Shown here: positions 30,156 to 49,989 of the stretch, piece after piece
How the letters are laid out: the number at the start of each line of letters is the position of its first letter
How positions within the stretch are numbered: the first letter of the stretch is position 1
Assembly: GCA_965655625.1 (NCBI GenBank)
Contig: CBFHHA010000008.1
Span: 3,742 to 67,741 of the forward strand
Source of the DNA: Flavobacteriales bacterium
GTDB taxonomy: Bacteria; Bacteroidota; Bacteroidia; Flavobacteriales_D; CAJJDF01
DNA length: 64,000 nt
Reading direction: 5' to 3'
Position numbers and translations under genes: made by a program
The notes under the pieces: model-generated
What the model was told of the DNA's origin: nothing
The model's input: the letters and a program-made list of their open reading frames with translations, nothing else
Databases searched by the model: none

Positions 30156-30216
30156 GGTTCTGTCGCATTAACTTCATTAAAAATAATCAATTTAATTTTT
30201 AATACATTGTTAAGCA
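30156..30216 (+). repeat. 61-bp inverted-repeat arm L, beginning with the IS6-like terminus
   Basis: GGTTCTGTCGCATTAACTTCATTAAAAATAATCAATTTAATTTTTAATACATTGTTAAGCA matches the reverse complement of 48604-48664 at 59 of 61 positions. Confidence 0.9.
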
Positions 30217-30581
30217 ACTATCAAACAAAATATTTTGAACGAAGTAAAATAAGAATTCATGGTTTGTCTACCGGTGAAGTTAAGATCTAAATACGTCCAT
30301 TACCAATCATTAAAAGCTAATTTAAATCCTAAAATGTTTTACCTATGTTTTACCTAGCTCGATTTAAGAGAAAGTTTTCGAGTAAAAATTCGATGGAATT
30401 CGGTTAAAATTTTAGCCGAAACACACAGTGATTAAACCTCTCACACCCCTTAATTTTACTCATAAAAAAGCCTCTAATCAATGATTAGAGGCTTTTTTTT
30501 GTACTCAAGGACGGACAAATATCGAACTTTTTGAAAGAGGATATCCTATTAGTTCTGAGTATTATTTAAGATCCTTATCCT

Positions 30582-30732
30582 GGTTCTGTCGCATCTACCA
30601 AATTTAACCGATTTAAATTGATAAAATTCAAATGTCATAAAATAAATTCAATTGAAAATCAGCACTTTAGTTTTTTATCTGATTCCATTTTTCTTAAAAA
30701 AAAGCAAAAAAATAGACAGATGCGACAGAACC
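30582..30732. mobile_element. 151-bp MITE-like unit with 15-17-bp terminal inverted repeats
   Basis: Starts GGTTCTGTCGCATCT and ends AGATGCGACAGAACC. It has no coding capacity, and the 63-aa ORF 30618..30809 looks spurious. Confidence 0.7.
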
Positions 30733-30961
30733 TTAAACGGTGTTTAGAGATGCTAAAATCGAAGAGTATTCATGTTAATAGTTTTCTGGTCATTTACCGT
30801 ATCAAATAATATTTCACTTTGATCGAAGTTAAAGTAGAGTAAAATCAATTTGCCCTCATTTTTTGTAAAAGTAATTATACTTCAAAAGTTGTTTAAAACT
30901 TGCGGTCATTATTAGAATCTTTCTTTTTTTTATACTTAATTTATGTTTAGTTTTGGGAAAT

Positions 30962-31837
30962 ATGAGAAGGTATAAGTTTTCTGGGCACGAAACATTTCAA
31001 TGTAGACACTTTTGGTTGAAGAAAGGATACGATTTCGTTAAGAGTGGCGAGGCATTTAAATCTAAAGAAGCGCTTGTGAAGTTGGGTGTAGGTAAGAATA
31101 TGATTACCTCGATAAGTCATTGGATGAAAGCTTTTAAGGTGGCTGATAATGAATCAGGAGAGCTCACTAAATTTGGTCACTACGTTTTTGGTGAGGAGGG
31201 AAAGGATCCCTACTTGGAGGATATAGGAACACTGTTTTTATTGCATTACAACATCATGACAAATCCTCAGCAAGCATCAATTTATCAGATGACTTTTGAG
31301 GAGTTCAGAAAGACGAGAATTGATTCTGAATTCACAGCAGAATTAATATTTGATTTTGTTACGCGTAAGCTAAAGAAGGAACAAGAAGCTTTCAGTGAGA
31401 AGTCACTTCAGAATGATGTCAAGGTGTTTCTTAGAACATATGAGACTTCTTCAAAACGTGGATCAAAGAGTATAGAAGATGATTTTTCTTCTGTGTTAAT
31501 CGAGCTTGATTTAATAGACCCAATACAGAATACTTTCATAAACGGAGAACAGGTTTGTCGCATTAAATATAACGAGCGCGATGATCTCGATAAGCTTATT
31601 TATCTATATGCGATCTTGGATCAGTTCGAAGGAAGCGAATCTGTTTCGGTGAAGGAAATACAATCAGCCGTCTCCGATAAATTCTTGTGTAATAGAGAGG
31701 GGACAGAAGAGAAGTTAAATGCTTTGAGCGAAGCAGGGTATATTGTTTACAAGCAAGATGCCGGAAGGAAAGAAGTTCAGTTGAAGAATAAACTGAGTAA
31801 GTGGGATGTTCTAAATAAGTATTATGGCAACGTTTAA
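30962..31837 (+). CDS. sspB: DUF4007-like protein, SspB-like component of Ssp-type DNA phosphorothioation
   Basis: MRRYKFSGHETFQCRHFWLKKGYDF is the characteristic DUF4007 N-terminus. ATG 30962 is preferred over the TTG at 30953. It overlaps the next gene by 14 nt. Confidence 0.6.
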   Translation: MRRYKFSGHETFQCRHFWLKKGYDFVKSGEAFKSKEALVKLGVGKNMITSISHWMKAFKVADNESGELTKFGHYVFGEEGKDPYLEDIGTLFLLHYNIMTNPQQASIYQMTFEEFRKTRIDSEFTAELIFDFVTRKLKKEQEAFSEKSLQNDVKVFLRTYETSSKRGSKSIEDDFSSVLIELDLIDPIQNTFINGEQVCRIKYNERDDLDKLIYLYAILDQFEGSESVSVKEIQSAVSDKFLCNREGTEEKLNALSEAGYIVYKQDAGRKEVQLKNKLSKWDVLNKYYGNV

Positions 31838-34800
31838 GATTTCAACGAATATCAACAGGGATGCCGATGCTCAATTAGATTACATCGTAACCAAGAATGC
31901 GAATGAGGTATATAATCGCATCATTCATAACTATTCTAGAGGACAGAATTCATTTACAATCATTGGTTCGTATGGAACTGGTAAGTCTACTTTTCTCTGG
32001 GCGCTAGAGCACCACCTGAGAGGGAATACGAAATTCGATAATCCGGTTAATGGTGAATTTAAAGGAGTCAAGAATTTTGACTTCAAACGAATTGTAGGAG
32101 AATCGACTTCATTCAAGGAGAGGTTCTGTATCGAGTTTGGTTTGTCGAAATATATTTTCTCTTCGAATAAAGAAATTCTGAAGGAATTTGCTGCCCTTTG
32201 TGAAGATATTAATTCAAGGAAACGTGCTTTGGTCATTCTGGTTGATGAGTTTGGAAAGCACTTGGAGTATATCGCGAAGAATAACCCTGAGGAGATGTAT
32301 TTCATTCAGGAACTTGCCGAGTTTTGTAATGATGCCAAACGTCAAGTCATTTTAATTACAACGCTTCATCAAAACTTTTCGGTTTATGCGAAGGGTTTAA
32401 CGAAAGCAGAAAAGAGTGAGTGGGATAAGGTAAGGGGAAGACTTATAGATATAGCATTTGATGAGCCGGTAGAGCAACTATTATTCTTCGCAGCACAGCG
32501 TTTGAAAAGTATTGCGGTTCCCGGGAATCTTCAAAAGATCTACAAAGAAACGGTACACATTATCGCTAATTCTCAACTTCTTGGTAAAGGTTTAGAGAGT
32601 CGATTGGATACATTAGAGGAATTGTTTCCTTTAGAGCCACTTGCAGCAGATGTACTCACAAAATCTTTACAGCGTTACGGACAGAATGAACGCTCTCTGT
32701 TTACATTTCTTGAGTCACCGGAATTATCTAGAAAGATCCATAACCAGCAAGCGTTCAATGTTGCCGATTGTTTTGATTATTTGATAGAAAACTTATCCGC
32801 TGAAATTGAAGATGGAGAGAAGAATCCGTTCAAGCCTCAGTGGAAAGCAGCTGTACTAGCTTTAGAAAAAGCTGAATTCATGTTTGAAGAGTATTATCAA
32901 GCGGTTGCAGATATCGTGAAAACGATTTGCTTGGTCAATATCTTCTCGAACAACGCTGGTCGACTAGATGATAACGTTCTTGTGAGTTATGGAGAGAATG
33001 TTCTTGGAATTAAGAACACGGATTCATTACTCAAAGGACTCGTGGAAAAGCGAATCATTAAATTCTCTAATTACAGATCGAAATACAATTTTATAGATGG
33101 TACGGATGTAGATGTAGAGCAAGAGTTAATCAAGGCAGCGCAACATGTTGACCAGGAGATAAACCTGATTAGCAGACTGGAGTCTTATTTTGATTTTGGG
33201 ATCATCCCTGCAAAGCGAATTCAATTTGAATTGGGTACGCCACGTTTCTTTCAGTTCAACTTTACGAATGAGTTCACATATGAGGAGCCTACAAATGAAA
33301 TTGATGGATATATCAATTTAATATTCACTAAAAAGCGGATATTAAAATTAGTTGAAGAGGGGGGTGAAAATGCTCCTGCTTCTCAAATATTTGTTCTTTT
33401 CATGGAGATAGATAAAATTCAAGAAACCATTTTTGAGATCGACAAGATCAACTATGTAATCCAAAAGTTTGTTGATGACAAGGTTGCAATGAGAATTCTT
33501 AACGAAGAGAAGCTACATCGAACAAATCAGTTAAAGGATTTTGTGGAGGGCGCGTTGTTCTCAAAAGAAGCGAAAGTCACATGGATCTGGAATTCTAAAT
33601 TAGACACACTGTATAGCGGGAAAAAGCGCTCGATTAATTCTTACAGGGATTTGAATCGTCTATTATCGGATGCTGCTCAAATTGCTTATCCTGAGACTCC
33701 TTGTTACCGTAATGAAATGGTGAACAAGGAATACTTGTCTTCACCAATACTTACGGCGCGAAAGGCCTTGATTAGGCAAATTGTAGCCCATGGTGATGAG
33801 AAAGATTTAGGATTCGAGGAGAAACGTTTTCCACCGCAGAAAACAATTTACTTATCCTTATTAAAGGAGACGGGTATTCACCAAGAGGAGAACGGTCGCT
33901 ATTTCTTTGGTAAACCCTCTGATCCGAGCTTCGCTCCACTTTGGGAAAAGAGTGAAGAAGTTCTGAGTAAATCTACCCAATCAAAAATGGCAGTGATTCA
34001 ATTCTATGATGATTTGAAATCTGGAGGGTTCAAATTGAAACAGGGGTTTTTAGATTTTTGGGTTCATTTGTTCTTGGTTATTAAGAAAGAGGACTATGGA
34101 TTGTATTACCAGGATGGAGAATATGTTCCGCACCTGACACCGGAGGTAATGGATCTTGTTTACAAGCATCCCACGAAATACTTTATCAAAGCACTTTCTG
34201 CGGAAGGCGTTCGTTCAGACTATCTAGGGTACTACAAAGAACTAGTAGGATACAACGAATCAAATATTAAAGGTCTAGAATCAAGCTATATTACGATCTA
34301 CGGTAACTTCTTAAGGTTCTATAGAGGCTTAGAGGATTTTACAAAGAAGACGAAGACAGATCTTTCAAAATCTAGCCTTGGTGTAAGAGATGCTATTGCG
34401 AATGCAAAGGACCCAGAAACAGCTTTGTTTACGAGTATACCTGAGGCATTAGGTTATTACGGATTGGAAGAATCTGATCCACGTCTTCAAAATTTCTTAA
34501 TGGATTTACAAGGTGCGATCCGAGAGATCCGAAGTGCTTACGATTGTCTTGTAGATAAGATTGAATTGAACATTAAAGAACATTTGTCAATTGATGTTGA
34601 CAGTTTCGATGAACTCAAAGAACAACTATTCAAGCTATTCCGTGGAGTGAATAAGAATATGATCGCTAATGATAAATTGAAAATATTCTATACACGTGTT
34701 GTTTCCCCTTTGGACGTTAAAAATGCGTATTGGGAATCCCTTTGTGATGCTGCGATAGGTAAGAAGTTAGACAAGGTAACTGATGATGAAGTTCAGTTGC

Positions 34801-35069
34801 TCATTGATAGGATGAAAGGGGAATTCAGTACCCTTATAGACCTCGTTGATATTCATAAGGTTGATCTTGCGGATGACGAAGAAATCATACAGTTTAGTAT
34901 ATTAGACCAATCAGGTGATAAAAATGTTCGTAAAAACCTTATTGTATCTCCTGAAAAGATAAAAGCATCAGAAAAACTGCAAGAGCGATTGGAAGGAATA
35001 CTAGGGGAGGATACAGAAGCAAATAGAATTGCACTATTGCAATTGCTTGAGAAAGAGATTAAAAAATAA
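31824..35069 (+). CDS. sspC: Large P-loop ATPase (1081 aa), SspC-like
   Basis: Walker A GSYGTGKST and Walker B LVILVDEFGKH, followed by a long helical C-terminal region. It lies between the DUF4007 and PAPS-reductase genes as in Ssp loci. Confidence 0.55.
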   Translation: MATFKISTNINRDADAQLDYIVTKNANEVYNRIIHNYSRGQNSFTIIGSYGTGKSTFLWALEHHLRGNTKFDNPVNGEFKGVKNFDFKRIVGESTSFKERFCIEFGLSKYIFSSNKEILKEFAALCEDINSRKRALVILVDEFGKHLEYIAKNNPEEMYFIQELAEFCNDAKRQVILITTLHQNFSVYAKGLTKAEKSEWDKVRGRLIDIAFDEPVEQLLFFAAQRLKSIAVPGNLQKIYKETVHIIANSQLLGKGLESRLDTLEELFPLEPLAADVLTKSLQRYGQNERSLFTFLESPELSRKIHNQQAFNVADCFDYLIENLSAEIEDGEKNPFKPQWKAAVLALEKAEFMFEEYYQAVADIVKTICLVNIFSNNAGRLDDNVLVSYGENVLGIKNTDSLLKGLVEKRIIKFSNYRSKYNFIDGTDVDVEQELIKAAQHVDQEINLISRLESYFDFGIIPAKRIQFELGTPRFFQFNFTNEFTYEEPTNEIDGYINLIFTKKRILKLVEEGGENAPASQIFVLFMEIDKIQETIFEIDKINYVIQKFVDDKVAMRILNEEKLHRTNQLKDFVEGALFSKEAKVTWIWNSKLDTLYSGKKRSINSYRDLNRLLSDAAQIAYPETPCYRNEMVNKEYLSSPILTARKALIRQIVAHGDEKDLGFEEKRFPPQKTIYLSLLKETGIHQEENGRYFFGKPSDPSFAPLWEKSEEVLSKSTQSKMAVIQFYDDLKSGGFKLKQGFLDFWVHLFLVIKKEDYGLYYQDGEYVPHLTPEVMDLVYKHPTKYFIKALSAEGVRSDYLGYYKELVGYNESNIKGLESSYITIYGNFLRFYRGLEDFTKKTKTDLSKSSLGVRDAIANAKDPETALFTSIPEALGYYGLEESDPRLQNFLMDLQGAIREIRSAYDCLVDKIELNIKEHLSIDVDSFDELKEQLFKLFRGVNKNMIANDKLKIFYTRVVSPLDVKNAYWESLCDAAIGKKLDKVTDDEVQLLIDRMKGEFSTLIDLVDIHKVDLADDEEIIQFSILDQSGDKNVRKNLIVSPEKIKASEKLQERLEGILGEDTEANRIALLQLLEKEIKK

Positions 35070-36187
35070 TGACAGAAGTAAAGCACATATTGGGAATATC
35101 AGGAGGGAAGGATAGTGCTGCCTTGGCATTGTACCTTAACCAAATGTATCCAGAAATAAATGTTGAATATTATACGTGTGATACAGGACGGGAACTAAAT
35201 GAGACATATAAACTCATTGAGCGCCTAGAGAGTAGAATGGGACAGAGGATTAAGCTGCTAGATGCGGTAGATCTAGACAATGTCGCAGATAGTTCTCCAT
35301 TTGATCATTTCTTATCATTGTACGGAGGCTATTTACCTTCCTCTACTTCTCGTTGGTGCACAAAGAAACTAAAGTTAGAGCCTTTTGAGAATTACATCGG
35401 AGATGAATCTACGATTTCATATGTTGGAATCCGTGGAGATGAAGATCGTGATGGTTATATTTCAAAGAAGCAAACAGTTCAATCAATCTTTCCATTCAGA
35501 AAGAATATCTGGAGTGAGGATGTGAACAGACTAATCTTGAGTAACACTAATCAGGATCGATTTATTGAAGTTGCGAAAGAAGTTGTAGATCCCATTTACT
35601 TGGATCGATTTATAGGGTATGCGGAAACGCCTATTTCTTCAACTTTTAATCTAAAGCAAAAACTAAATGCGTTGTTGGATGTAAGCATTAAGTCATACAA
35701 CCATGTGGTATTTCAATTATTGAAAGACACTGATTACCCTGTTGGGCAGTTAGAATCATTTCCTCTTATAGATAATGAAGAAAATCTTGTATTAGAAGAC
35801 ATCTTCAACTTATTAGAGGATTCTGGTGTCGGTATTCCAGCCTACTACAAACCACTCGAATATGAAGTGGAAATTGATGGCGAAATCAAAAAGGGCACAT
35901 ACAGTCGCAGTCGTTCAGGATGTTTCTTTTGTTTCTACCAACAAAAAATCGAATGGGTTTGGTTATTAGAACATCATCCCGATTTGTTTGAAAAGGCAAT
36001 CGAATACGAAAAGGATGGTTACTCTTGGATGGATACAGAAACCTTAGAAGAGTTGCGTCAGTCTGACCGCGTAGCGGCTATAAAGAAAGAACACTATTTA
36101 CGAATGAACCGAAACAACCAACAAAAGTCTTGGAAGGACCAAATCCTTGATGCAGATGGTGAGGGTTGTGCAAGTTGTTTTATTTAA
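35069..36187 (+). CDS. sspD: PAPS-reductase/PP-loop ATP pyrophosphatase family protein, SspD-like
   Basis: PP-loop ILGISGGKDSAALALYL; C-terminal Cys motifs GCFFCFY and GEGCASC. The start overlaps the sspC stop (TAATG). Confidence 0.7.
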   Translation: MTEVKHILGISGGKDSAALALYLNQMYPEINVEYYTCDTGRELNETYKLIERLESRMGQRIKLLDAVDLDNVADSSPFDHFLSLYGGYLPSSTSRWCTKKLKLEPFENYIGDESTISYVGIRGDEDRDGYISKKQTVQSIFPFRKNIWSEDVNRLILSNTNQDRFIEVAKEVVDPIYLDRFIGYAETPISSTFNLKQKLNALLDVSIKSYNHVVFQLLKDTDYPVGQLESFPLIDNEENLVLEDIFNLLEDSGVGIPAYYKPLEYEVEIDGEIKKGTYSRSRSGCFFCFYQQKIEWVWLLEHHPDLFEKAIEYEKDGYSWMDTETLEELRQSDRVAAIKKEHYLRMNRNNQQKSWKDQILDADGEGCASCFI

Positions 36188-36210
36188 GAGTTAGATGTCA
36201 AGAATAGATC

Positions 36211-37010
36211 ATGTACATTGACAAATTAAAATTAAAATCTTTTGGCCCCTTTGAAGAACTTTGCTTAAACTTTCATCAAAGAAGTTTAAATCTAGTTTTT
36301 GGCAATAATGGAGCCGGAAAAATCCAAATAGTAGCTGGAATAATTGGAGCAGTTTCTCCGTCTCATGAGCTTTTTATATAATCGAATCCACAAGTTACAC
36401 TGATAGTGAGTTAAACATTTCTCTAATAGAAAATAATCAGGTTGAGAACACATTAATTGCAAGATCATCTGAGACCGAAAGCGGTCTTTTTGTTAGAACA
36501 ACCAATGCTGGAAAAATATCTAAGAAACTTTATGAAGTTGCTAAAAATGAGAAGATGCCTTCACTTCTTTTAAACTTTTCGCTTCATTCTGAAACACTAG
36601 ATAAACGCTCAATTCTATATATTCTTAAGAAAGTGCCAAAAGATATTCCATTAGAACTATGGAATACCATACGTGATATTATAATTGATGGAATGAATTC
36701 TCCAACTCTATCGGTATGGCCATATGTTTTCTTACTTGCAAAGGAAATACATCTAAGACGCAAATACTCGAACTCAATCCCCCTATTGGTTGACCTACCT
36801 ACTTTATTTAATTCTGATTTTGTTCCACTTTTGCTAGATATTTTGAACGAGTTAGCAAAATATGACCAAGTAATTCTATTCTTAAAAGAAGAAGGTAAAA
36901 TCCAAGAGTCAATAGACGAATATCAAGTCCTTTATACATTGCCAAACAAAATTTCAACTCAAAAGCATTATTTATTTGGAGACTCCAACTTGATTTTATT
37001 TCCACAATAA
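36211..37010 (+). pseudogene. Frameshifted, catalytically degenerate SMC/ABC-like mini-ATPase
   Basis: The ORF 36211-36381 (MYIDKLKLKSFGPFEEL...VFGNNGAGKIQ) stops at TAA. A second frame is open from 36369 to 37010 and carries a Walker-B-like PLLVDLPTLFNSD. The two frames overlap at a T5 run (36371-36375). The Walker A has GKI rather than GK[ST], and the Walker B has DL rather than DE. Confidence 0.55.
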
Positions 37011-37269
37011 AATCGTCAGCTAAGAAAACCAAATTTGCAAAACTAAACGGTTATGCAAATGAATCTCTAAACTACTTGTAAGGCTGAACAGTAGATCATT
37101 TATACTTATTAAAGGAAGTACTCAATTGGAAACTTTATAGGTTTGACTCTCTGTAGAATTTTATCACTGAACAATAACGTGTCTCTGGACGATTGTTGAA
37201 CAATTATTTTTTTGTTGAGTTTGCGAATTACAGTGCATCACTCAAGTCTTCTTTAAATAGAAATTCAAT

Positions 37270-37773: not shown

Positions 37774-37774
37774 A

Positions 37775-39922: not shown

Positions 39923-40152
39923 ACCGCTTCCTGATTTAAAAATTGAATTATCTTTTTCTGTAATGCTGAGTCTGACTCTGCCGGAACCTTTTCTTGCGAT
40001 TCAACAATCAGTGCAATTGTCTGAATAATCACATGGTTTGAAGAAAGTCCTTCCCTCAAGTTGTTGGGTAAATCAGATTGATCAATCCCATATTTATCCT
40101 TAACAATGGGGTGTTTTACAAAACTTACAAAAATGTCATCTTTTCTAGCCAT
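39919..40152 (-). CDS. 77-aa hypothetical protein within the restriction-like operon
   Basis: The ORF overlaps the downstream ATPase gene by 4 nt (ATGA) and starts 6 nt after the helicase stop. No family recognised. Confidence 0.45.
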   Translation of the reverse strand: MARKDDIFVSFVKHPIVKDKYGIDQSDLPNNLREGLSSNHVIIQTIALIVESQEKVPAESDSALQKKIIQFLNQEAV

Positions 40153-42375: not shown

Positions 42376-43549
42376 TGAGTGAAATTCTAATTAAACTATA
42401 TGGTTTCAATCTGAGAGCCTTGACAACATGTGATACGTCCATAATACTTGCATTACAAGCGCTTCCAGTAGCAGCAGCGAGTTCTTTAGCTTTCATGATC
42501 AAGAAATCTTCAGCATCTTGTTTGTTCAACGTAATACTTAAAATATGAGGTGCTGTCTTCACATTTCTAAAGTTAATAATTCCAATATTCTTCTCTTCAA
42601 AATAGGCTTGCCATTCTTTGCGTAAAGTGTTTAGTTGGGCGAAATGCTCACCGAATTCTTCAAGTGAAATCCTACATGCCTCTCCGAAGCCTACAATTCC
42701 TGGTGTATTATAGGTTCCTCCTCGCATTCCATTTTCCTGTCCGCCACCGTGCATTAAAGATTCAAGCTTTACACCACTTTTAACATAGAGGGCACCGACA
42801 CCTTTTGGGCCTTTCATTTTATGTCCGGATATACAGAGCATATCAATGTTTTCCTTTGATACACTTACTGCGATCTTTCCAACTGCCTGTGAAGCATCAC
42901 AGAAAAAACAAACATCATTTTCTCTTGCTATTTCACCAATTGCCTGAATATCTTGAATAATACCCGTTTCATTGTTTACAAACATCACACTAATCAATGC
43001 AGTTGTTTCTTTGATTGCTCCTTTGAGATCCTCTAATGAGATCAGTCCATTTTTATCGACATTTAGATAGGTTACCTCGTATCCCTTAGATTCTAAATAC
43101 TCGCAAGTTTTTAAAACTGCCTTATGTTCTGTTGTGACCGTGATGATATGATTTCCTTTTTCCGGATTGGCTTCTAAATAGCCTTTTAATGCCCAGTTAA
43201 TAGCTTCCGTGGCACCAGAAGTGAAATAGATTTCTTTTGAATCTGCATTAATGATGTTGGCTACATGTCCACGAGCCGTTTCAATAGCTCGTTTTGCTTC
43301 TTTACCATATACGTGATTGCTGCTCGCGTTCCCAAAGATCTCATCGAAATAAGGTAGCATAGCTTCTTTCACTCTAGGGTCAACTGGAGTGGTCGCTGCG
43401 TTGTCAAGGTATTTAGGTTGGTTAATCAATTCTCGGAATAAATAAAACTTTGTACTTCTTATAAGTTCTTCATCTGCTGCTCGTGATAGTTGTTTTGCAG
43501 AATATATTAATGAAATAAAACAACGTAAGATATAAAATAGAAACCACAT
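42368..43549 (-). CDS. sspA: Cysteine desulfurase (NifS/IscS class), SspA/DndA-like
   Basis: YLDNAATTPVDPRV, the PLP-lysine loop SGHKMKGPKGVGALY and GGGQENGMRGGT. The first 40 or so codons of the track ORF are atypical, so a TTG at 43429 (giving MINQPKYLDNAATT) may be the real start. Confidence 0.8.
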   Translation of the reverse strand: MWFLFYILRCFISLIYSAKQLSRAADEELIRSTKFYLFRELINQPKYLDNAATTPVDPRVKEAMLPYFDEIFGNASSNHVYGKEAKRAIETARGHVANIINADSKEIYFTSGATEAINWALKGYLEANPEKGNHIITVTTEHKAVLKTCEYLESKGYEVTYLNVDKNGLISLEDLKGAIKETTALISVMFVNNETGIIQDIQAIGEIARENDVCFFCDASQAVGKIAVSVSKENIDMLCISGHKMKGPKGVGALYVKSGVKLESLMHGGGQENGMRGGTYNTPGIVGFGEACRISLEEFGEHFAQLNTLRKEWQAYFEEKNIGIINFRNVKTAPHILSITLNKQDAEDFLIMKAKELAAATGSACNASIMDVSHVVKALRLKPYSLIRISLNA

Positions 43550-43634
43550 TTCAAATGTTAATTATAAGTATTTACCAATTAGCCTATTTTCTTAAACAAT
43601 CAGTAAAAATAAACTTTGTAATGTTTGGTTAAAC

Positions 43635-43647
43635 GGTTCTGTCGCAT
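43635..43647 (+). repeat. Solo IS6-like terminus
   Basis: GGTTCTGTCGCATCTGT is a perfect 17-nt inverted copy of the right end of the 30582-30732 unit. Confidence 0.8.
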
Positions 43648-43690
43648 CTGTTTTTAAATTTACACAAAATAGTTGTTATTAAAAAAAATT

Positions 43691-43841
43691 GGTTCTGTCG
43701 CATTAATTATTTTTTAAACGTTTTTCACTAAAATCGCCCTTCCTTCAAAAAGTTAAATCACCAATAAACAAAGCTTTAGGTTTTTCAATCTTTACCAAAA
43801 ACGGCAAAAATCAGTCGGTTTTTGTTTAATGCGACAGAACC
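43691..43841. mobile_element. 151-bp MITE-like unit
   Basis: GGTTCTGTCGCATTAA ... TTAATGCGACAGAACC. Its interior is related to the 49839-49989 unit. Confidence 0.7.
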
Positions 43842-44284
43842 TAGAAAAGAAGTTAGCAAGACTTGAGGAACGATTCGTTTTTGAAGAAATAAATAAGGCT
43901 CAATACGAAAAATTCAAATCTAAACTCACCCAAGAAAAAAATGAAAAACTAAACTTTTCTGAAAAAGTTGGATATAATTTATCGAACCTAGAAAAAGCGC
44001 TAGAAATAGCTCTCAACAAAGCTCCGGAACTACCTTCATTGTGGACAAATGGAAATTTAGCAGAAAAAAGAAAGATTCAAAAAATGGTATTCCCTGATGG
44101 AATTGAATATGACCATAAAAATGATGAATATCGAACTTTTAGAGTGAATTCCTTTTTCTCCTACATCCCAGTAATATCAAAAGAATTAGGCCATAAAAAA
44201 ACCGGAAAGTTTCGTGAGAAAACGAAAAATTCCGGTTTAGTACTCGAGACGGGACTTGAAACTATATATTTATCCTTATTGTAG
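43829..44284 (+). pseudogene. 3' remnant of a large serine recombinase gene
   Basis: LEKKLARLEERFVFEEINKAQYEKFKSKL...NLEKALEIAL...LWTNGNLAEKRKIQKMVFPDGIEYDHKNDEYRTFRVNSFF resembles the coiled-coil and C-terminal region of Bacteroidota large serine recombinases. There is no resolvase catalytic domain upstream, and the apparent ATG lies inside the MITE terminus. Confidence 0.5.
44237..44260. repeat. attL: 24-bp copy of the tRNA-Leu 3' end
   Basis: TTAGTACTCGAGACGGGACTTGAA is identical (24 of 24) to 51349-51372. Confidence 0.9.
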
Positions 44285-44448
44285 AACATCAAGAAACATT
44301 GAGAAAAACCTTTGTAAACAATGGAATAGTTACTATAATTAACAAGTAGAGGCATTGTGTAAAATAGTATAACATTGTAATAAATTCATTTTTACTGTTC
44401 AATTACTGTTCAATTTTTATATCTTTAATTATTCAAATATCAAATTCA

Positions 44449-45768
44449 ATGGCGACAATTAAATTTTACTATCGGTCAACAAAAGAAACGGCAAATATTA
44501 CCCTTAGATTAATGCATCAAGTTTCAAAAGAAGAAATAATAAGCATTTACGGAAGAACTAACTTCAGAATAGAGAAATCGACTTGGAATGAAACAAGAAA
44601 AAAAACTATAAAAGATGCCGAATTAAGAAATTCAAAAGTTGACATAGAAAAAGAATTAACCAATTTAGAAAATTTTGTTCTCACAAACACTCCTGCTGAT
44701 ATAACAGAGATTAACAAAGAATGGTTAACCGATACAATTAATGAGTATTATAATCCTATAAAAGAACACAAAAACACGGTTGAATATTGGGTACAACATT
44801 TTATTGATAACTCACATACATTTGACAATCCAAAAGGAGGAATCGGACTTGGTAAAAGTAGAGTTGACAGTTATAAGGCATTAAAAAAAACGTTAATTTC
44901 TTTTAATAGTAAATTGACATTGATAGACTGTAATAAAAAAACATTTGACGACTTTAAAAAATGGTTAATTAAGAAACAATATTCGCCTACTACACTATAT
45001 AAAAAACAATCGGACTTAAAAACTATTTGTATTTATGCTCAATCGGAGGGTATGGAGGTATCTCAACAAATTCACTCAATCAAAATCAAAAAAGGGAATC
45101 CATACGAAGACGATATGGACGTTATTACATTAACCGAATTAGAGATTGGTAAGATAGAAAAACTTAATCTTAAAAGGTTATCCTTAATAAATGCGAGAAA
45201 GTGGTTAATATTGGCATGTTATACTGGGCAAAGAGGGCAAAGACTATTAAACAATATCAAAAAGGAAAATTTTAAACCATATAAAGACGATTTAATTATC
45301 AGGTTTCAACAATCAAAAGGAAACAAAACGGTAACAATTCCGGTTTTACCAAAAGTAAAGGATATCTACAATAATGGTTTACCTTATGAAATTAGTCTTC
45401 AGAAACTTAATACCTATTTTAAAGAATTAGGAGAAAAGGCAGAAATAAACGAACCGACTATTGGAACAATTAGAGAAAGTATAGAAGTCTCAAAAGGTAA
45501 GAGTATTCAAAGAAATGTAAAAAAAGAACGTGAAAAATGGAGGTATATCTGCTCACACATAGGAAGAAGAACATTTGCGACTAATCACTATAATAAACTA
45601 CCTACTACACTAATTATGAGGGTTACGGGTCACGGGAAAGAATCCGACCTACTTACATACATAAACCAAAAGAATGACGACCACTTGGACGTATTTTTTG
45701 ACTACTATAAAACCAAAGAAGAAGAAAAAGAAACTCCAATAAAGCAATTAAAAACAGTAAACAAATAG
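44449..45768 (+). CDS. int: Tyrosine-type site-specific integrase
   Basis: Bacteroidota integrase architecture: N-terminus MATIKFYYRS.. (Arm-binding type) and a catalytic region with ...LACYTGQRG..., HIGRRTFATN and VTGHGKESDLLTYI. Confidence 0.85.
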   Translation: MATIKFYYRSTKETANITLRLMHQVSKEEIISIYGRTNFRIEKSTWNETRKKTIKDAELRNSKVDIEKELTNLENFVLTNTPADITEINKEWLTDTINEYYNPIKEHKNTVEYWVQHFIDNSHTFDNPKGGIGLGKSRVDSYKALKKTLISFNSKLTLIDCNKKTFDDFKKWLIKKQYSPTTLYKKQSDLKTICIYAQSEGMEVSQQIHSIKIKKGNPYEDDMDVITLTELEIGKIEKLNLKRLSLINARKWLILACYTGQRGQRLLNNIKKENFKPYKDDLIIRFQQSKGNKTVTIPVLPKVKDIYNNGLPYEISLQKLNTYFKELGEKAEINEPTIGTIRESIEVSKGKSIQRNVKKEREKWRYICSHIGRRTFATNHYNKLPTTLIMRVTGHGKESDLLTYINQKNDDHLDVFFDYYKTKEEEKETPIKQLKTVNK

Positions 45769-45864
45769 ACTTCTTGGGGTATCTGCTTTGCGTGTGTAAA
45801 GGTTAAAACAACTAATTGTTGAGGATTTTATATATTTATCACTGCAACGTGAATAAAATTTCAA

Positions 45865-46794
45865 ATGAACAACAAATTATACGTTATCAATTGTGAAAAA
45901 CCAAAAGAAACAAGAGCCCAAACTTTGTTACTAAAAACTTGCGTTGAACAGCATATTTTAAAAAATGTTCAATTCAAGATTGAAAACTTAAGATATCGAT
46001 TGAAATTTGAAAAAGACCAAAATGTATTCATAGAGCGAATAGTTGACAATTTAAAAGTGAATTTCATTAGTGAAAATTTTAAGTCATTTAAGTACAGTTT
46101 TGATTCAAACACTAACATACTGAATTTAGCATCAGGTACAATATTAGATTATATTTTTAACTCTACAGAAAAAGGTTATCCCAGATACTGTATCAGAAAA
46201 GACTTTTTTATTGTGGTTAACAACTACGTCAAACTGTTTGACTCCGAAGAACATGAGATTGTCGAACTTGATAATGAAGTTGAAATAAAAAAAACATTTT
46301 TGAAATTACATTCAAAAGAATTGAGCGAAATATCAAATTTCATACAATTAGAATACTGGTTAAAAGAACTAAACTCTAATAAAGACATGCTACCCTCAAA
46401 TTGTCAGGATAAACAAATAGATAACTCCCTATTAAAGGATTATTGTAAAACCAATAATTCAATACCAAAAGAAAATTCAACGACTACAAATGTTAAATTT
46501 ACAAAAGAGATAGATGGCGTTGTTTGCCCCGACTGGATGACTTTAAAAGGGTTTTACATTTTCAATGAATATCTTAATGTAACAACAAAAAAAAGTGAAA
46601 TGGCACTATCTTACATTATCAAACAACTAATTGAAGACAATGAAATAAGTAAAGATAAAGGATATACAGATTTTTCGTTTTCAAATTGGTTAATGGAATC
46701 ATACAATTTAGAATTAACGAAAGTTAGAAGTTTTAATGAATGTAATATCGATAGTAGAAAGTTAATATATAATACTATTGTCAAAGATTTGTAA
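45865..46794 (+). CDS. Hypothetical protein of the integrative element
   Basis: 309-aa ORF; no family recognised. Confidence 0.45.
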   Translation: MNNKLYVINCEKPKETRAQTLLLKTCVEQHILKNVQFKIENLRYRLKFEKDQNVFIERIVDNLKVNFISENFKSFKYSFDSNTNILNLASGTILDYIFNSTEKGYPRYCIRKDFFIVVNNYVKLFDSEEHEIVELDNEVEIKKTFLKLHSKELSEISNFIQLEYWLKELNSNKDMLPSNCQDKQIDNSLLKDYCKTNNSIPKENSTTTNVKFTKEIDGVVCPDWMTLKGFYIFNEYLNVTTKKSEMALSYIIKQLIEDNEISKDKGYTDFSFSNWLMESYNLELTKVRSFNECNIDSRKLIYNTIVKDL

Positions 46795-46881
46795 ACTCGG
46801 GTTAAGTACCCGAAAACCCGACCAATAGACCCTAAACTAACAATATAAATTTGGATATTATTAATTTAAATATCTAAATAT

Positions 46882-47163
46882 ATGAATGGACAAATCCAAC
46901 TAATACAATTAACCCCTAACGAATTGCAAAACGCAATTATCGAGGGTATCAATCAAAAGTTTGACGAACTAAGAAAGTCATTCCAACCCAAAGAACCGAC
47001 AGAACTATTAACGAGGTCGGAAACATCCGCACTACTAAAAATTAATCTGTCAAGTTTATGGAGTTGGACAAAGCAAGGTAAACTTGTTTCTTATTCAATC
47101 GGGAATAGGGTTTATTACAAAAGAAGTGAAGTGTTACAATCTCTTATTGAACTTAAACACTAA
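46882..47163 (+). CDS. Excisionase-family / MerR-like helix-turn-helix protein
   Basis: LLTRSETSALLKINLSSLWSWTKQGKLVSYSIGNRVYYKRSEV follows the HTH_17-type pattern; 93 aa. Confidence 0.65.
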   Translation: MNGQIQLIQLTPNELQNAIIEGINQKFDELRKSFQPKEPTELLTRSETSALLKINLSSLWSWTKQGKLVSYSIGNRVYYKRSEVLQSLIELKH

Positions 47164-47367
47164 GAATAATGAGAGCAACGCAACCACAACCCACTTATTA
47201 CAATCCCAAACTTTAAAAATTGTATTCTATAACGGTTATCACCCCGATTATAAGACGATACAAACACTTTTAAAGAATATCTAACCAAACACAGCCACAA
47301 ACAATAAAAGAGGGTGTTAAAACCCTCCTTTATTTATTCAAATGTAGTATTCAACTGCAACGCAAAA

Positions 47368-47395
47368 CCTACACCTACACCTACACCTACACCTA
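47368..47395 (+). repeat. Hexanucleotide tandem repeat (CCTACA)x4 plus a partial unit
   Basis: CCTACACCTACACCTACACCTACACCTA lies 18 nt upstream of the 47413 ORF start. Confidence 0.9.
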
Positions 47396-47412
47396 AAGAT
47401 ACAAATAATTAA

Positions 47413-48474
47413 TTGATTGACGGTTTAAACATATCGAACGAAGACAAAGTAATTATTAAAAAAATACTTTCTGTTTCTGACTTGGTTTTTCAAAAAGAAG
47501 TTGAACTATTACGAAAGGACGGAACACTATTTCAGCAACAAATACACACCTACAAAAAACTACAATTTATTTTTACTGGATGCTACATTGACGGATGTTT
47601 TGTTCCTAATAAATTAAAAATAAAAGGAAGTCTACACTACTACTGGAATAATGGCATACACAACTATAATAATTTCAATTTTAATGGTCTAAAAACGGTA
47701 GTAAATGAGTTAAAAAACAAATTCTATATAAACCCAACTGACTGGAAAATTCATTCCTTAGAGTATGGCATTAACCTAAACACAGATATAGAGGTTAATA
47801 ATTTTCTCAATCATTGTTTTTATAATGGAAATGAAAAATTTTTACGACCAATAAACAAACCATTTTTACAAGCAGGAAACACCCGAAACAATGATGTTTT
47901 ATATAAATTGTATAACAAAGGTTTTCAATTCAATAAACTAACAAATATTAACATTCTAAGGTATGAGATAAGGATAAACAACTCGAGAGCCTTAAAACGT
48001 TTGACTGAAATTTATAATCTATCCGACCTTCTAAATATAGATAAATTAATAAAATTACATTCTTTACTTATAGATAGTTTTAACGAAATATTATTTTCTG
48101 ACTTCACAATTAAATATAGTGGTTTAACTAAGGTTGAAAGAAAAAATCTAATCAAATATCAAAATCAAATTACTTGGGATAATTATAAGAATTACAGTAG
48201 TAGAAATACCTTTAACAACAACAAAAAAAAGTTCAATACACTAATTGAAAACCATTCAAAAAACATACTGAAAACTCTTTCTGACGATGTCAAAAAACAA
48301 AGTTTCAGCAACCTTAATTTAAACACTTATAAATTAGAACCATACGACAAAAATTTGTACGTATACCGAACAAGTACAGAATCAAAAATTTGTGCATATA
48401 CCTACTTATATATATACGGTAATTGCACAACTCAAAGCAAACGTAAATGTTTAGTATCTGATTCGAAACATTAA
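47413..48474 (+). CDS. Possible replication-initiation (Rep_trans-like) protein
   Basis: TTG start. IHSLEYGINLN, VLYKLYNKG and ILRYEIRINN loosely follow the Rep_trans pattern (v.rlDia.D; riYdK; vRiEl.l). It is preceded by an iteron-like repeat. Confidence 0.35.
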   Translation: MIDGLNISNEDKVIIKKILSVSDLVFQKEVELLRKDGTLFQQQIHTYKKLQFIFTGCYIDGCFVPNKLKIKGSLHYYWNNGIHNYNNFNFNGLKTVVNELKNKFYINPTDWKIHSLEYGINLNTDIEVNNFLNHCFYNGNEKFLRPINKPFLQAGNTRNNDVLYKLYNKGFQFNKLTNINILRYEIRINNSRALKRLTEIYNLSDLLNIDKLIKLHSLLIDSFNEILFSDFTIKYSGLTKVERKNLIKYQNQITWDNYKNYSSRNTFNNNKKKFNTLIENHSKNILKTLSDDVKKQSFSNLNLNTYKLEPYDKNLYVYRTSTESKICAYTYLYIYGNCTTQSKRKCLVSDSKH

Positions 48475-48603
48475 TACATTACAGAGAAGAAATCAGAGAA
48501 GTAACAGAGAGAGACAAAGCAGTTACGTTTATCAAATCATCAAGAAGCGCTTTTGAACGAGAAAGAGTTTAATAAATAGCATGAAAACACTCTGTTCGTT
48601 AAA

Positions 48604-48664
48604 TGCTTAACAATGTATTAAAAATTAAATTTATTATCTTTAATGAAGTTAATGCGACAGAACC
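48604..48664 (-). repeat. 61-bp inverted-repeat arm R, ending with the IS6-like terminus
   Basis: Its reverse complement matches 30156-30216 at 59 of 61 positions. Confidence 0.9.
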
Positions 48665-48828
48665 AATTGAAGTAACTTTTGCTAACAATGTATAAGCGGC
48701 ATTAAAACGCCTGCTTATAATAACCGTTATGGGCAAGTTTGAAACCATATCGTAAGACAAAAGATTTTACTGACAAACGAACAAGTTCATAACTATTTTG
48801 GTAAGTTAATAATATTAAAATTAGAAAA

Positions 48829-49812
48829 ATGAAACAAAAATTATTTACTTTATTATTGGTAACACTTTTCTTTATAAACAAAGGTAAAGCTCAATATTCA
48901 ACGAGTTATATTTCATATGAGTATACTGAAATTATGGCTTATTCAATAGAAATAACTTATTCTTCTTCAAATGGATATTATCAACCATATTCTCCTTATG
49001 TTTCTTATGGTAATGCTTTGGCAACTATGCAGGCAAGATATGATAAAAACCATGCAATTATCTCAAAAGAATGGGGTAAGCTTTTGAGTTTAAACTTAAT
49101 CAATATTCATAACAAAGCAACATTAAAGCACCATCAAGAGGAGATTAGTGCAAAAGTGAAAATGAATTGTAAAGGAGATTTAGGAAATCAGGCGTATGCA
49201 GATTCATGGATAGATTATGTTACTCAAACATTTAGAATTCAATCGATTAAAGATGAAATATTAGTACTACAAAGTTGCCAAAGTGAATTAAATCGAATAA
49301 AATATAAAGACCCCGATAATTATATTTATTCTAAAAGGTATAAATCCATTTTGAAAACACTTGAATTATTAAAAAATTGTAGTTCTTCTAAAATAAAATA
49401 TCTGAGTTGGGAAAAAACAGAACTTGAAAATAAGGAAATATATAATTACTCAAGTACTAAAGCCAACTTAAATTATTCTTACACAAGTAATTCTCAAAAA
49501 CTCAAAATAGTAAATATTTCAAAACTATCAAAATATACTGTTATTTCTTTGCAATATGATAACATTCAACTTTGCTCTGATTGCTGGATAAATTATTCAC
49601 CAAAAACATATTTAGAACAGAATGGAAAAAAATATTATCTAAAAAAGGTTGAAGGCATTCCTTTAAGTCCTAATAAATACTATTTTAAAACTAAGAGTAT
49701 TTTGTCTTTTGATCTTTACTTTGATAAATCAATTAATCTAAATGAGAAATTTGATTTGATTGAAACCCAAGGAAGTACTACCGCTTTTAATGTCTATAAT
49801 ATATCAAAATAA
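48829..49812 (+). CDS. Secreted protein of unknown function
   Basis: Signal peptide MKQKLFTLLLVTLFFINKGKAQ; 327 aa; no family recognised. Confidence 0.5.
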   Translation: MKQKLFTLLLVTLFFINKGKAQYSTSYISYEYTEIMAYSIEITYSSSNGYYQPYSPYVSYGNALATMQARYDKNHAIISKEWGKLLSLNLINIHNKATLKHHQEEISAKVKMNCKGDLGNQAYADSWIDYVTQTFRIQSIKDEILVLQSCQSELNRIKYKDPDNYIYSKRYKSILKTLELLKNCSSSKIKYLSWEKTELENKEIYNYSSTKANLNYSYTSNSQKLKIVNISKLSKYTVISLQYDNIQLCSDCWINYSPKTYLEQNGKKYYLKKVEGIPLSPNKYYFKTKSILSFDLYFDKSINLNEKFDLIETQGSTTAFNVYNISK

Positions 49813-49838
49813 AATATTGTGTACACAAAAGCAATTTC

Positions 49839-49989
49839 GGTTCTGTCGCATTAATTATTTTTCGACCATTTTTCATCAAATTCTTTGAATGTTTAAAAAG
49901 TTATCGCACATTAGTTCAACGGTTTATGATTTTTTGTTTTGTATGAATTATGCTTCAAATAGTGATTGTTTAGTTAATGCGACAGAACC
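49839..49989. mobile_element. 151-bp MITE-like unit
   Basis: GGTTCTGTCGCATTAATTATTTTT ... TAGTTAATGCGACAGAACC. Confidence 0.7.

Follow-up and report, generated by a model that had tools for sequence, protein, structure and literature searches.

What are the nine copies of a 13-mer, GGTTCTGTCGCAT, that punctuate a defence and mobile region of a Flavobacteriales genome, and how did they come to lie at its joints? The 64-kb stretch of DNA analysed (the window) holds nine exact occurrences where 0.82 are expected by chance; none of 100 shuffles reached nine, and a search of the window at up to two mismatches returned no further copy, which bears out the count in the initial annotation, made from the sequence alone. 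The copies fall into two subtypes, ...GCATTAA (n = 6) and ...GCATCT (n = 3), have a sharp element boundary at GG, and resolve into three intact MITEs, one 56-bp MITE fragment and two IS right-end stubs (Table 1). The three units are exactly 151 bp long, as had been claimed; their terminal inverted repeats, put at 15-17 bp, are indeed perfect but measure 15, 16 and 16 bp. The interiors of the last two had been called related, and units 2 and 3 are in fact the most alike (106 identities over 154 alignment columns; 84% identity across the first 45 nt). The arms at 30156 and 48664, on the other hand, had been given as 61 bp and are longer, forming an 85-nt inverted repeat at 88% identity, and the description of the termini as MITE-like ends suits the three pairs but not the others, two of which belong to stubs of full-length IS and one to the 56-bp fragment. 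The nine termini cluster within 30156-49989; a tenth, decayed terminus, GGTCCAGTCTCAT at 21998-22013, sits outside the range first considered.

The answer to the first half of the question lies in full-length elements with the same ends, which the initial annotation had proposed to look for. Such IS, 765-791 bp long and with identical GGTTCTGTCGCATTAA ends, are present in related marine Flavobacteriales genomes (L005/L167, L030, L032, L041, L067 with two copies, L070 and L169-L196), alongside a second subgroup of 772-775 bp that ends in GGTTCTGTCGCATCT[A/G]. They encode a single IS6-family DDE transposase of 222-230 aa, which scores 234-241 bits against the NCBIfam IS6-family model NF033587 (cutoff 125) and matches Pfam DDE_Tnp_IS240 (PF13610) at 1e-40. 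The transposase search returned 80 loci, with IS ends definable in about 50, and within this set each terminus subtype of the window corresponds to one of the two IS subgroups. The core CTGT.GCA recurs in about 50 IS6-family elements, alphaproteobacterial ones included, and the window motif matches the family-wide terminus GG..CTGT.GCA. Several assemblies (JABAYJ, CAJQHR, NVVR, NVWV, CBCYMK and JAURQI) bear both MITEs and a full-length IS with the same ends. These data show the nine 13-mers to be the outermost bases of IS6/IS26-family transposable elements, in support of the identity first suggested; the possibilities raised against it, absence of any matching IS and confinement of the motif to this one locus, are both contradicted. 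In the curated ISfinder set that Harmer and Hall examined (Harmer & Hall, 2019), Bacteroidetes are represented by ISCca2 alone.

No element copy in the window is autonomous. The initial annotation had seen no transposase there, tblastn with the cognate transposase found no match in the window, and no autonomous IS of the same genome lies within the 64 kb covered. The stubs overall are 79-96% identical to the ends of full-length IS: that at 30156-30266 matches positions 1-111 of the L030 IS and 680-790 of the L167 IS at 89-93%, its inverted counterpart at 48584-48664 matches the L030/L167 IS at 94-96%, and the left-end stub at 21886-22013 is an older remnant. The match of the 56-bp fragment to known elements is confined to its terminal 18 nt. 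The three MITEs represent three subfamilies, of which c22 is 100% identical to its counterpart in L043 and 99% to those in L020, L029 and L076; c6 shows 89-91% identity to L049, L051, L039 and L023, and c8 99% to L049 and 95% to L030 and L061.

Units of this kind, bounded by the 13-mer and 131-153 bp long, occur at 84 loci in at least 44 species-level assemblies. Exactly 151 bp is the length of 57 of 95 units, with a second mode at 140-141 bp, and their likeness to full-length IS is limited to 15-19 nt. Short, non-coding, multicopy and with inverted ends, they number three in the window and at least nine in assembly JABAYJ01. The strict form of a mid-unit motif, WATCAR-N4-TTR, is found in 28/95 units (1.9 expected) and always at the centre; in c22 it reads AATCAGCACTTTA and begins at unit position 76. 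By its letters this motif resembles the IHF consensus, although the counts are non-independent, the subfamilies being kin by descent, and the consensus may not be that of Bacteroidota IHF/HU proteins. Some units are 99-100% identical between assemblies of different species. They sit in unrelated contexts, often within or adjoining other IS copies and truncated genes (a truncated Phage_integrase adjoins one in L005), and at most other loci they lie far from any terminus cluster. Comparison of the units with Rfam families gave no match. The 151-bp units make up a MITE family that is itself new but belongs to an established type of mobile element. The IS6 family has very few MITEs, with two in ISfinder as of 2019-2021, MITEBth2 and MITEHarch3, of 227 and 336 bp (PMC7986276, PMC6807381).

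Table 1. Mobile-element, island and defence features of the 64-kb window
Feature	Position	Strand	Remarks
Decayed IS stub, left (IRL) end with first ~28 transposase codons	21886-22013	-	79% identity to L167/L030 IS positions 1-128
Degenerate terminus GGTCCAGTCTCAT of the left-end stub	ends at 22013	-	
GGTTCTGTCGCAT, plus-strand copies	30156, 30582, 43635, 43691, 49839	+	
GGTTCTGTCGCAT, minus-strand copies	ends at 30732, 43841, 48664, 49989	-	
Terminus copy 1, IRR stub, 111 nt	30156-30266	+	Full-length IS match; last transposase codons; terminus faces left
Native tRNA-Leu terminator hairpin, displaced	30461-30501	-	Part of 30436-30518
att(c), degenerate tRNA-Leu 3'-end copy	30498-30518	-	Part of 30436-30518
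Island A left arm, 63 bp	30519-30581		Ends ...AAGATCCTTATCCT against terminus copy 2
c22 MITE, 151 bp, terminus copies 2 and 3	30582-30732		GCATCTA / GCATCTG ends
Passenger segment, 12.9 kb	30733-43634		Between two termini
SspB, SspC, SspD	30953-36187	+	Followed by two small ORFs
SMC-like ATPase	37775-39922	-	
PbeA-like helicase	40159-42375	-	
SspA/cysteine desulfurase	42368-43549	-	
Terminus copy 4, 56-bp fragment	43635-43690	+	GCATCTG-type element; directly adjoins next MITE
c6 MITE, 151 bp, terminus copies 5 and 6	43691-43841		GCATTAA type
Island A right arm, 395 bp	43842-44236	+	3' remnant of gene, cut by MITE
att(b), exact 24-nt tRNA-Leu 3'-end copy	44237-44260	-	
Tyrosine-integrase-like gene, island B	44449-45768	+	SAM-like N-terminal domain alone detected
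309-aa ORF, HTH_17 excisionase-like ORF, 353-aa ORF	after 44449-45768 gene (HTH_17 ORF: 46882-47163)		
Terminus copy 7, 81-nt IRR stub of full-length IS	48584-48664	-	Inverted relative to copy 1
c8 MITE, 151 bp, terminus copies 8 and 9	49839-49989		GCATTAA type
148-nt duplicate (92%) of 5' part of ORF 50274-51140	49990-50137	-	Truncated paralogue adjoining MITE
att(a), tRNA-Leu 3'-end copy	51349-51372	-	
tRNA-Leu(taa) gene, anchor of island array	51352-51436 (feature 51349-51436)	-	

How such elements moved may be reflected in their flanks. As the initial annotation had stated, none of the units in the window is flanked by an 8-bp duplication; more broadly, target-site duplications accompany 0/101 MITE/IS units, with no 2-10 bp duplication above chance, and none was seen at about 50 further full-length IS6-family copies. 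No reverse-complement flank pairs were found between neighbouring copies. The missing 8-bp duplication does not exclude membership of the IS6 family, because ISfinder enters the duplication as 'nd' (not observed) for most members (PMC6807381); repeats can be lost through intramolecular transposition, and flanks are exchanged in targeted integration (PMC7986276). The lack of target duplication is consistent with what is typical of this family.

The primary organiser of the locus, missed by the initial annotation, is a tandem array of tRNA-Leu-integrated islands, recognised by three tRNA 3'-end repeats and the integrase-like gene at 44449-45768. The segment 30436-30518 is 86-97% identical to the sequence directly 3' of tRNA-Leu in L023, and synteny with the relatives L247-L252 stops at the tRNA gene. 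The left arm of island A, together with its junction, also occurs in L029, L327 and L328, and the arm alone in L039. Its right arm is what remains of a gene named 'site-specific DNA recombinase' by one source (JGI) for 3/49 homologues; the listed ORF 43829-44284 takes its ATG from the terminus ATGCGACAGAACC. This remnant is cut beside MITEs at 43842 in the window and at window-equivalent positions 44116 in L048/L078 and 44135 in L039, and in L039 a c6 MITE also adjoins the same sequence type as 49990-50137, 45 bp further in. Between the arms lies an SspABCD/Pbe-like module, a DNA-phosphorothioation defence system, placed exactly between two termini, in agreement with the earlier remark that the copies mark the joints of the defence and mobile region.

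One of these joints is informative across genomes. What follows the junction ...AAGATCCTTATCCT/GGTT differs between contigs: c22 in the window, a c6-like MITE in both L029 and L327, a 135-bp deleted IS in L328. In the window, c6 sits 13.1 kb to the right of the junction that holds c22. As judged from these sequences, different occupants at one junction are suggestive of insertion beside a resident element, as had been put forward; the same junction joins different elements in four contigs, but in L029, L327 and L328 the terminus has decayed and contains one additional C. Different occupants might also result from recombination or gene conversion between elements, or from a locally favoured insertion site. 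The related idea of a pseudo-compound transposon stands in so far as a passenger lies between family termini, and falls short in that the elements on either side are not identical copies in direct orientation. As a canonical pseudo-compound transposon the Ssp module was rejected, its left side being formed by c22 and its right by an unrelated 56-bp GCATCTG-type fragment plus c6.

What sequence of events might connect these observations? Of the IS, the MITEs would have kept no more than the 15-19-nt ends that bind transposase, and would depend for movement on the 222-230-aa DDE transposase acting in trans from full-length copies elsewhere. IS26-type transposases form cointegrates, produce deletions or inversions next to the element, and trade flanking DNA at a terminus already in place (the 'targeted conservative' route). 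Movement of this non-clean type, which we infer here from IS26 biology, would explain the lack of 8-bp duplications together with the unrelated flanks and the genes truncated at the terminus. An ancestral arrangement of island-A left arm and c6 MITE, kept in L029 and L327, may have taken in a segment consisting of the c22 MITE, the SspABCD/Pbe-like module and the 56-bp fragment, with the left terminus of the resident c6 as the exact point of entry, and MITE-associated deletions may have trimmed the island's own recombinase gene. The IHF-consensus-like centre may bend the DNA and favour synapsis of the two ends. Taken as a whole, this account (IS6-family relics, mobilisation in trans, no clean hopping, the island history and the central motif) is very probably the best explanation of the locus, whereas the particular history of insertion, read from sequence comparison, would stand at roughly even odds. 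What counts against the account is that the targeted conservative route needs transposase from both partners (PMC7986276), and that MITEs of different subfamilies have only 13-15 nt in common and make no transposase.

Could the same layout have arisen the other way round, with SspABCD/Pbe as the original cargo of the tRNA-Leu island, MITEs arriving later at its edges, and adjacent deletions removing the remaining island DNA, including most of the recombinase gene, until selection halted them at the module borders? We give this somewhat less than an even chance. It would accommodate the nested cut points of the recombinase remnant beside MITEs across genomes, island arms worn down to 63 and 395 bp, flanking elements that are not identical copies, and the absence of the terminus from all 80 related Ssp loci examined elsewhere, there being no independent MITE-borne Ssp cassette among them. 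Yet the left arm joins a c6-type MITE in L029 and L327, and the presence of c22 at that junction in the window, with c6 displaced by 13.1 kb, finds a simpler explanation in insertion at the c6 terminus; the GC content of the module, 36.4% where the island DNA on its right has 26-29%, also sits poorly with original cargo.

Other readings question the nature of the elements themselves. If the 13-mers were sites at which a site-specific recombinase binds or makes its crossover (Xer, the tyrosine integrase of 44449-45768 or the truncated recombinase of 43842-44236), and the 151-bp units paired cassette-shuffling sites resembling pdif or attC, the clustering at module joints of a recombinase-coding island, the absent target-site duplications and the one flank-terminus junction with different occupants would all follow; but elements of 765-791 bp whose sole gene encodes an IS6-family DDE transposase have this sequence as their inverted ends, the motif fits the family terminus even in alphaproteobacteria, most units elsewhere lie away from terminus clusters, and the actual att sites of the island are copies of the tRNA-Leu 3' end instead, so that this reading is scarcely credible. 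As pdif/Xer or attC sites proper the 13-mers are contradicted by their association with a DDE transposase and by the absence of a half-site/spacer architecture. It is improbable, if less so, that the units are host elements domesticated from IS6-like ends, serving as architectural sites, insulators/terminators or a small RNA, with purifying selection accounting for their fixed length, conserved centre and cross-species near-identity. The predominance of 151 bp across diverged subfamilies, the motif at position 76 and the near-identical units in different-species assemblies speak for it, whereas the lack of an Rfam match, the parasite-like scatter through unrelated contexts, often beside IS copies and truncated genes, and the intact perfect termini, which argue for continuing use by a transposase, speak against it, and recent horizontal spread fits the near-identity equally well.

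A bolder extension of the preferred account, in which IS6 ends are relics mobilised in trans, would see them as portable crossover sites in marine Flavobacteriales: abundant 151-bp MITEs, each pre-bent by an architectural protein sitting at its exact centre, would act as docking points at which a transposase supplied in trans moves cassettes by conservative flank exchange. We consider this unlikely. If true, MITE-based cassette exchange would insert, swap and delete modules, here SspABCD/Pbe, in tRNA-linked islands with no target duplication, as a functional analogue of pdif modules or integrons, and would demonstrate efficient action of IS6 transposases in trans.

Antibiotic-resistance regions of clinical bacteria are assembled mainly by IS26-type elements, whose unusual chemistry, with cointegrates only and flank exchange beside a resident copy, is still debated. 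If 151-bp MITEs of several subfamilies are widespread in environmental Flavobacteriales, this would imply that IS6 transposases can work in trans, and would supply natural 'minimal substrates' for studies of end-targeted exchange, with the present locus as a concrete example of IS6 ends at defence-island joints. For annotation, the family explains contig breaks and truncated recombinase genes at a tRNA-Leu hotspot in these MAGs.

How does the locus compare with known systems? With the IS6/IS26 family (IS26, IS257/IS431, IS1216, IS6100) the window elements share termini that start with GG, the CTGT.GCA core, short near-perfect inverted repeats, frequently absent target duplications and copies at the joints of accessory modules, and the partner IS share a single DDE transposase within 765-791 bp (family criterion, about 700-890 bp). 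They differ in that the window holds MITEs and stubs without an autonomous copy, that the hosts are marine Flavobacteriales, and that a target duplication is seen in 0 of about 150 copies in a family that nominally makes 8 bp; the terminus GGTTCTGTCGCAT, whose positions 9 and 13 are C and T, also departs from that of IS257, GGTTCTGTTGCAA. The IS6 MITEs of ISfinder likewise keep both IS ends without a transposase and are presumed to be mobilised in trans, but MITEBth2 and MITEHarch3 are much longer than 151 bp, whereas the present units have an interior unrelated to the parent IS past 15-19 nt and a conserved central motif, and comprise several subfamilies across at least 44 species-level assemblies of a different host phylum. 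Correia elements, which are high-copy MITEs of Neisseria, about 100-155 bp long and with an IHF site in the middle, resemble them in size class, terminal inverted repeats, a mid-element architectural-protein-like site and copy number; Correia termini, however, are unrelated, Correia elements duplicate TA while no duplication is seen here, and the IHF-like site is here a sequence match only. IS26 pseudo-compound transposons and translocatable units also place a passenger between family termini, with adjoining elements and no flanking duplications, although their two identical direct IS are replaced here by MITEs of different subfamilies and a fragment. As in targeted conservative integration, comparative data would put the incoming segment precisely at the terminus of a resident element; unlike the IS26 case, that element is without a transposase and identity at the reacting ends spans 13-15 nt. 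Finally, tRNA-linked tandem islands show the same three direct copies of a tRNA-Leu 3' end, an integrase beside one att site, a native terminator shifted by 21 kb and synteny broken exactly at the tRNA; what sets this array apart is that the recombinase of island A is lost, its gene truncated beside a MITE, and that the interior of this island is bounded by IS6-type termini.

Nine exact copies of the 13-mer GGTTCTGTCGCAT are present in the 64-kb window, against a mean of 0.82 and a maximum of 4 in dinucleotide-preserving shuffles, and the window held no further copies at up to two mismatches. The initial annotation had placed nine copies at these positions and had paired six of them into units of exactly 151 bp; an exact search bears out both statements, the three units (30582/30732, 43691/43841 and 49839/49989) having perfect inverted ends of 15, 16 and 16 bp, respectively, and representing three subfamilies, c22, c6 and c8, of one large family of MITEs. 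For the c22 unit, L043 has a copy of 100% identity, and the copies in L020, L029 and L076, assemblies that represent other species, match it at 99%; the closest core DNA available for comparison shows 91% (L247) or approximately 80% identity. Directly adjoining the c6 MITE is a 56-bp fragment of the ...GCATCTG type, which begins with the copy at 43635.

The two arms of an 85-nt inverted repeat (88% identity), headed by the copies at 30156 and 48664, bracket 18.3 kb. These arms differ in kind from the 151-bp units, being stubs of the end of a full-length IS, with 89-96% identity to it. Inversion of the 18.5-kb segment between them was considered and rejected, because att(c) and att(b), the two copies of the tRNA-Leu 3' end that it contains, point the same way as att(a), which lies beyond it. 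An older stub, whose terminus has decayed to GGTCCAGTCTCAT, lies outside the 30156-49989 range initially annotated. Between this left-end stub, which ends at 22013, and the right-end stub starting at 30156 in the same orientation, 8.1 kb (22014-30155) encode a PKD/T9SS-tail protein, a collagen-repeat protein (43% GC), an OMP beta-barrel and other ORFs, a layout in which the two stubs resemble the inner ends of a pseudo-compound structure of IS6 type that has decayed; there are no matching 8-mers at this stub pair.

Features of the window and their positions
Feature	Position	Strand	Remarks
Older IRL stub	21886-22013		left IS end and first ~28 codons; 79% identity
IRR stub	30156-30266		111 nt of right IS end, including last transposase codons
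IRR stub	48584-48664		81 nt, same right (IRR) IS end
Terminus subtype ...GCATTAA	30156, 43691, 43841, 48664, 49839, 49989		
Terminus subtype ...GCATCT	30582, 30732, 43635		
Degenerate tRNA-Leu 3'-end copy	30498-30518		
Island A	30519-44236		surviving backbone: 63-bp left arm and 395-bp right arm (recombinase remnant)
SspB	30953-31837		
SspC	31824-35069		
SspD	35069-36187		
SMC/LmuB/PbeC-like ATPase	37775-39922		
PbeA-like helicase	40159-42375		PADLOC PbeA, 1089 bits
SspA	42368-43549		
Exact tRNA-Leu 3'-end copy	44237-44260		
Island B	44261-51348		integrase-like gene, HTH_17 gene, several uncharacterised ORFs
tRNA-Leu(taa)	51352-51436	minus	

What kind of element do these termini belong to? Within loci carrying 13-mer units there are also full-length elements in which the same termini lie 779-791 bp apart (GGTTCTGTCGCATTAA...TTAATGCGACAGAACC), each with a single ORF of 222-230 aa that scores 234-241 bits against the NCBIfam model NF033587 'IS6 family transposase' (cutoff 125 bits) and 1e-40 to 1e-43 against Pfam DDE_Tnp_IS240. 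The likeness to IS257 and IS26 ends noticed initially therefore reflects genuine membership of the IS6 family. A search with the transposase added 80 loci; after delimitation of the ends, the flavobacterial elements fell into one subgroup of 765-791 bp with ...GCATTAA ends and another of 772-775 bp with ...GCATCT[A/G] ends, which are the window's two terminus subtypes, and alphaproteobacterial relatives have GGTTCTGTCGCAAA-type ends. The window itself gave no tblastn match to the transposase, as the initial annotation had it, so that only non-autonomous copies reside there. The 13-mers might instead have been recombinase binding sites, a reading that a motif confined to this locus and lacking any matching IS would have favoured; matching full-length IS exist and the motif is widespread, both of which contradict it, and the real att of the island is a different sequence.

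When one genome per bacterial species was scanned for pairs of inverted 13-mers separated by 110-140 bp, 84 loci in at least 44 assemblies were recovered, nearly all of them in marine or freshwater Flavobacteriales (Crocinitomicaceae, Parvicellaceae, Flavobacteriaceae, Maribacter, Kordia). A few lie in MAGs assigned to other phyla or in Janthinobacterium; the units with these ends in L004, L016, L062 and L064 belong to assemblies that bear the labels Zixiibacteriota, Cellvibrionales, Janthinobacterium sp. PC23-8 and Glaciecola, PC23-8 being an isolate whose unit has a GC-rich 148-bp interior. Contamination of bins, horizontal transfer or an independent origin as MITEs of related IS6 elements could each account for such cases. 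Searches of viral contigs gave no matches to the units, those of a plasmid collection only AT-rich noise, and no unit matched Rfam.

Exactly 151 bp is the length of 57 of the 95 short units, with a second mode at 140-141 bp, and conservation breaks off abruptly outside the first G, leaving only a weak A/T periodicity in the flanks. Similarity between MITE and IS ends after 15-19 nt, which rules against simple internal-deletion derivatives and marks the units as true MITEs rather than recent deletion products; deleted IS do exist (135 bp in L328, 216 bp in L076). A sequence-level match to the IHF consensus, WATCAR-N4-TTR, occurs in 28 of the 95 units versus 1.9 expected from shuffles, and a looser form in 53 versus 9.7, in counts over subfamilies that are related by descent. 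Nearly all matches fall mid-unit, with a start at position 76 in 39 cases among the 151-bp units, and we infer from this placement that the central motif may be a bend site helping both ends to synapse in so short an element. The fixed length and conserved centre would also suit a domesticated host function, though an unlikely one; the contexts look parasitic and speak against it, with units nested in copies of other IS or lying up against genes that are truncated.

Target-site duplications of 2-10 bp were not found above chance at 101 units, nor were offset repeats within 25 bp or reverse-complement 8-mers and flank pairs between neighbouring copies, and approximately 50 further full-length IS, including alphaproteobacterial ones, likewise had no duplications. 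The window itself lacks 8-bp duplications, as noted initially. When the flanks of 125 units, left joined to right, were compared with 246 loci, no empty site was matched, the flanks being contiguous nowhere among these. All this is typical of the IS6/IS26 family, for most members of which ISfinder gives the target duplication as 'nd' and where IS26 'exclusively forms cointegrates' (PMC6807381); flanking repeats are destroyed by intramolecular replicative transposition, and targeted integration beside a resident copy exchanges flanks and makes no duplication (PMC7986276). That the flanks of one element are usually mutually unrelated is consistent with the cointegrate and flank-exchange behaviour described in these reviews.

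Genes beside these elements are cut at the terminus. The start codon of the ORF at 43829-44284 is an ATG inside the terminus ATGCGACAGAACC, and this ORF reads into the truncated recombinase gene, so the terminus can make fusion start codons; an ORF in L005 (4017-4388) likewise starts at the ATG in ATGCGACAGAACC and reads into a truncated integrase gene, the MITE there adjoining a Phage_integrase gene without its first third. A second terminus lies within 120 bp outside the unit at seven loci, a count that we give as a qualitative one. Intact MITEs abut or interrupt a truncated IS or another MITE in L036 (4378-4574), L061 (5443-6185), L024 (2455-2785), L076 (4548-4747) and L022, with a parallel in the window at 43635/43691. 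This suggests that the elements preferentially insert in or beside one another.

In the window they are embedded in an island array at tRNA-Leu. A hairpin at 30461-30501 precedes the degenerate copy of the tRNA 3' end, and in L023 the same hairpin directly follows tRNA-Leu; the repeated 3' ends and the displaced hairpin indicate that the 21 kb from 30.5 to 51.35 kb comprise at least two tandem islands. Island B is interrupted by the c8 MITE and by an IS stub. The MITE directly adjoins a 148-nt direct repeat of 92% identity (49990-50137/50936-51083) whose first copy is a truncated paralogue corresponding to the 5' portion of the ORF at 50274-51140; a further decayed terminus, GGTTCATTCTCATTAA, is possible at 50184-50199. 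Between the arms of island A lie, in order, the c22 MITE, a 12.9-kb Ssp-Pbe defence module, the 56-bp fragment and the c6 MITE. The recombinase remnant of island A is the C-terminal part of a protein that one source names 'site-specific DNA recombinase'; all 49 database homologues are short (80-249 aa) and of varied length, with no full-length version among them, and the gene apparently persists only in island arms, truncated to varying extents, beside tRNA-Leu fragments. Right arm, att copy and left arm are contiguous in L039 (3897-4070), L327 (13224-13389) and L328 (3963-4177), an attP-like or tandem junction that points to circularisation or tandem repetition of the small island A backbone. 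In relatives with 80-96% identical flanking proteins, similarity is lost exactly at tRNA-Leu, making this a hypervariable site, and synteny gave no left boundary of the array, there being no similarity to these relatives past the tRNA even between proteins. For the two nearest relatives, L247 and L248 (96% and 92% protein identity; L247 with 91% nucleotide identity over 11.6 kb), the contigs stop within ~50 bp of tRNA-Leu, where the repeat-laden array probably breaks short-read assemblies.

The module (30953-43549, with three additional small unassigned ORFs) is a complete SspABCD phosphorothioation system with a Pbe-type instead of an SspE-type effector set. How did it come to lie between two such termini? 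Three further contigs share the junction of the left arm with a terminus (...AAGATCCTTATCCT/GGTT...), and its occupant varies: an intact c22 MITE in the window, a c6-like MITE in L029 and L327, and the 135-bp internally deleted IS in L328. The window's c6 MITE sits 13.1 kb beyond this junction. The ancestral layout would then have been left arm followed by c6, and c22, Ssp-Pbe and the fragment would have been joined precisely where the resident c6 has its left terminus, as expected of flank exchange between two synapsed termini. Insertion next to a pre-existing copy, as initially proposed, thus draws support from a shared junction with differing occupants and is the simplest reading, though we give it roughly an even chance: in the other three contigs the terminus is decayed, with an additional C; the module lies between elements that are not identical copies in direct orientation, unlike in the canonical pseudo-compound picture; the terminus is absent from all 80 related Ssp loci; and targeted integration by IS26 reportedly needs identity of the reacting ends and transposase made by each of the two partners (PMC7986276).

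The main rival holds that Ssp-Pbe was original cargo, around which MITE-associated adjacent deletions trimmed the island. Such deletions do happen, since the recombinase remnant is cut beside the MITE at different points in different genomes (43842 in the window, and the equivalents of 44116 in L048 and L078 and of 44135 in L039). The nearest other Ssp modules have just ~70% nucleotide identity, so module boundaries are not comparable, and an exact-protein look-up for strain variants returned no more than two short contigs, both from the sample ERR15116867. Copy-in of an IS6 element into a circular target would be expected to leave an 8-mer repeat at the passenger's edges, and the passenger (30733-43634) does start with TTAAACGG (30733-30740) and end with TTAAAC plus the GG of the terminus (43629-43636); the repeat holds only when that GG is counted and is marginal (roughly p = 0.01-0.03), and, the flanking elements not being duplicates, a cointegrate with an Ssp circle as target was not adopted.

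The initial interpretation was essentially right. IS6 reviews list just two MITEs, of 227 and 336 bp (PMC7986276, PMC6807381), and one Bacteroidetes IS, ISCca2 (PMC6807381), and a text search for the 13-mer in one literature collection returned no relevant paper, its sole matches being unrelated Drosophila studies; on these grounds, the 151-bp units are an undescribed, widespread MITE family. Of use to IS6/IS26 specialists and for the annotation of Flavobacteriales islands, they are not a new kind of element but one of a known kind, and those in the window, lying where the parts of a defence island join, act typically for the IS6 family.
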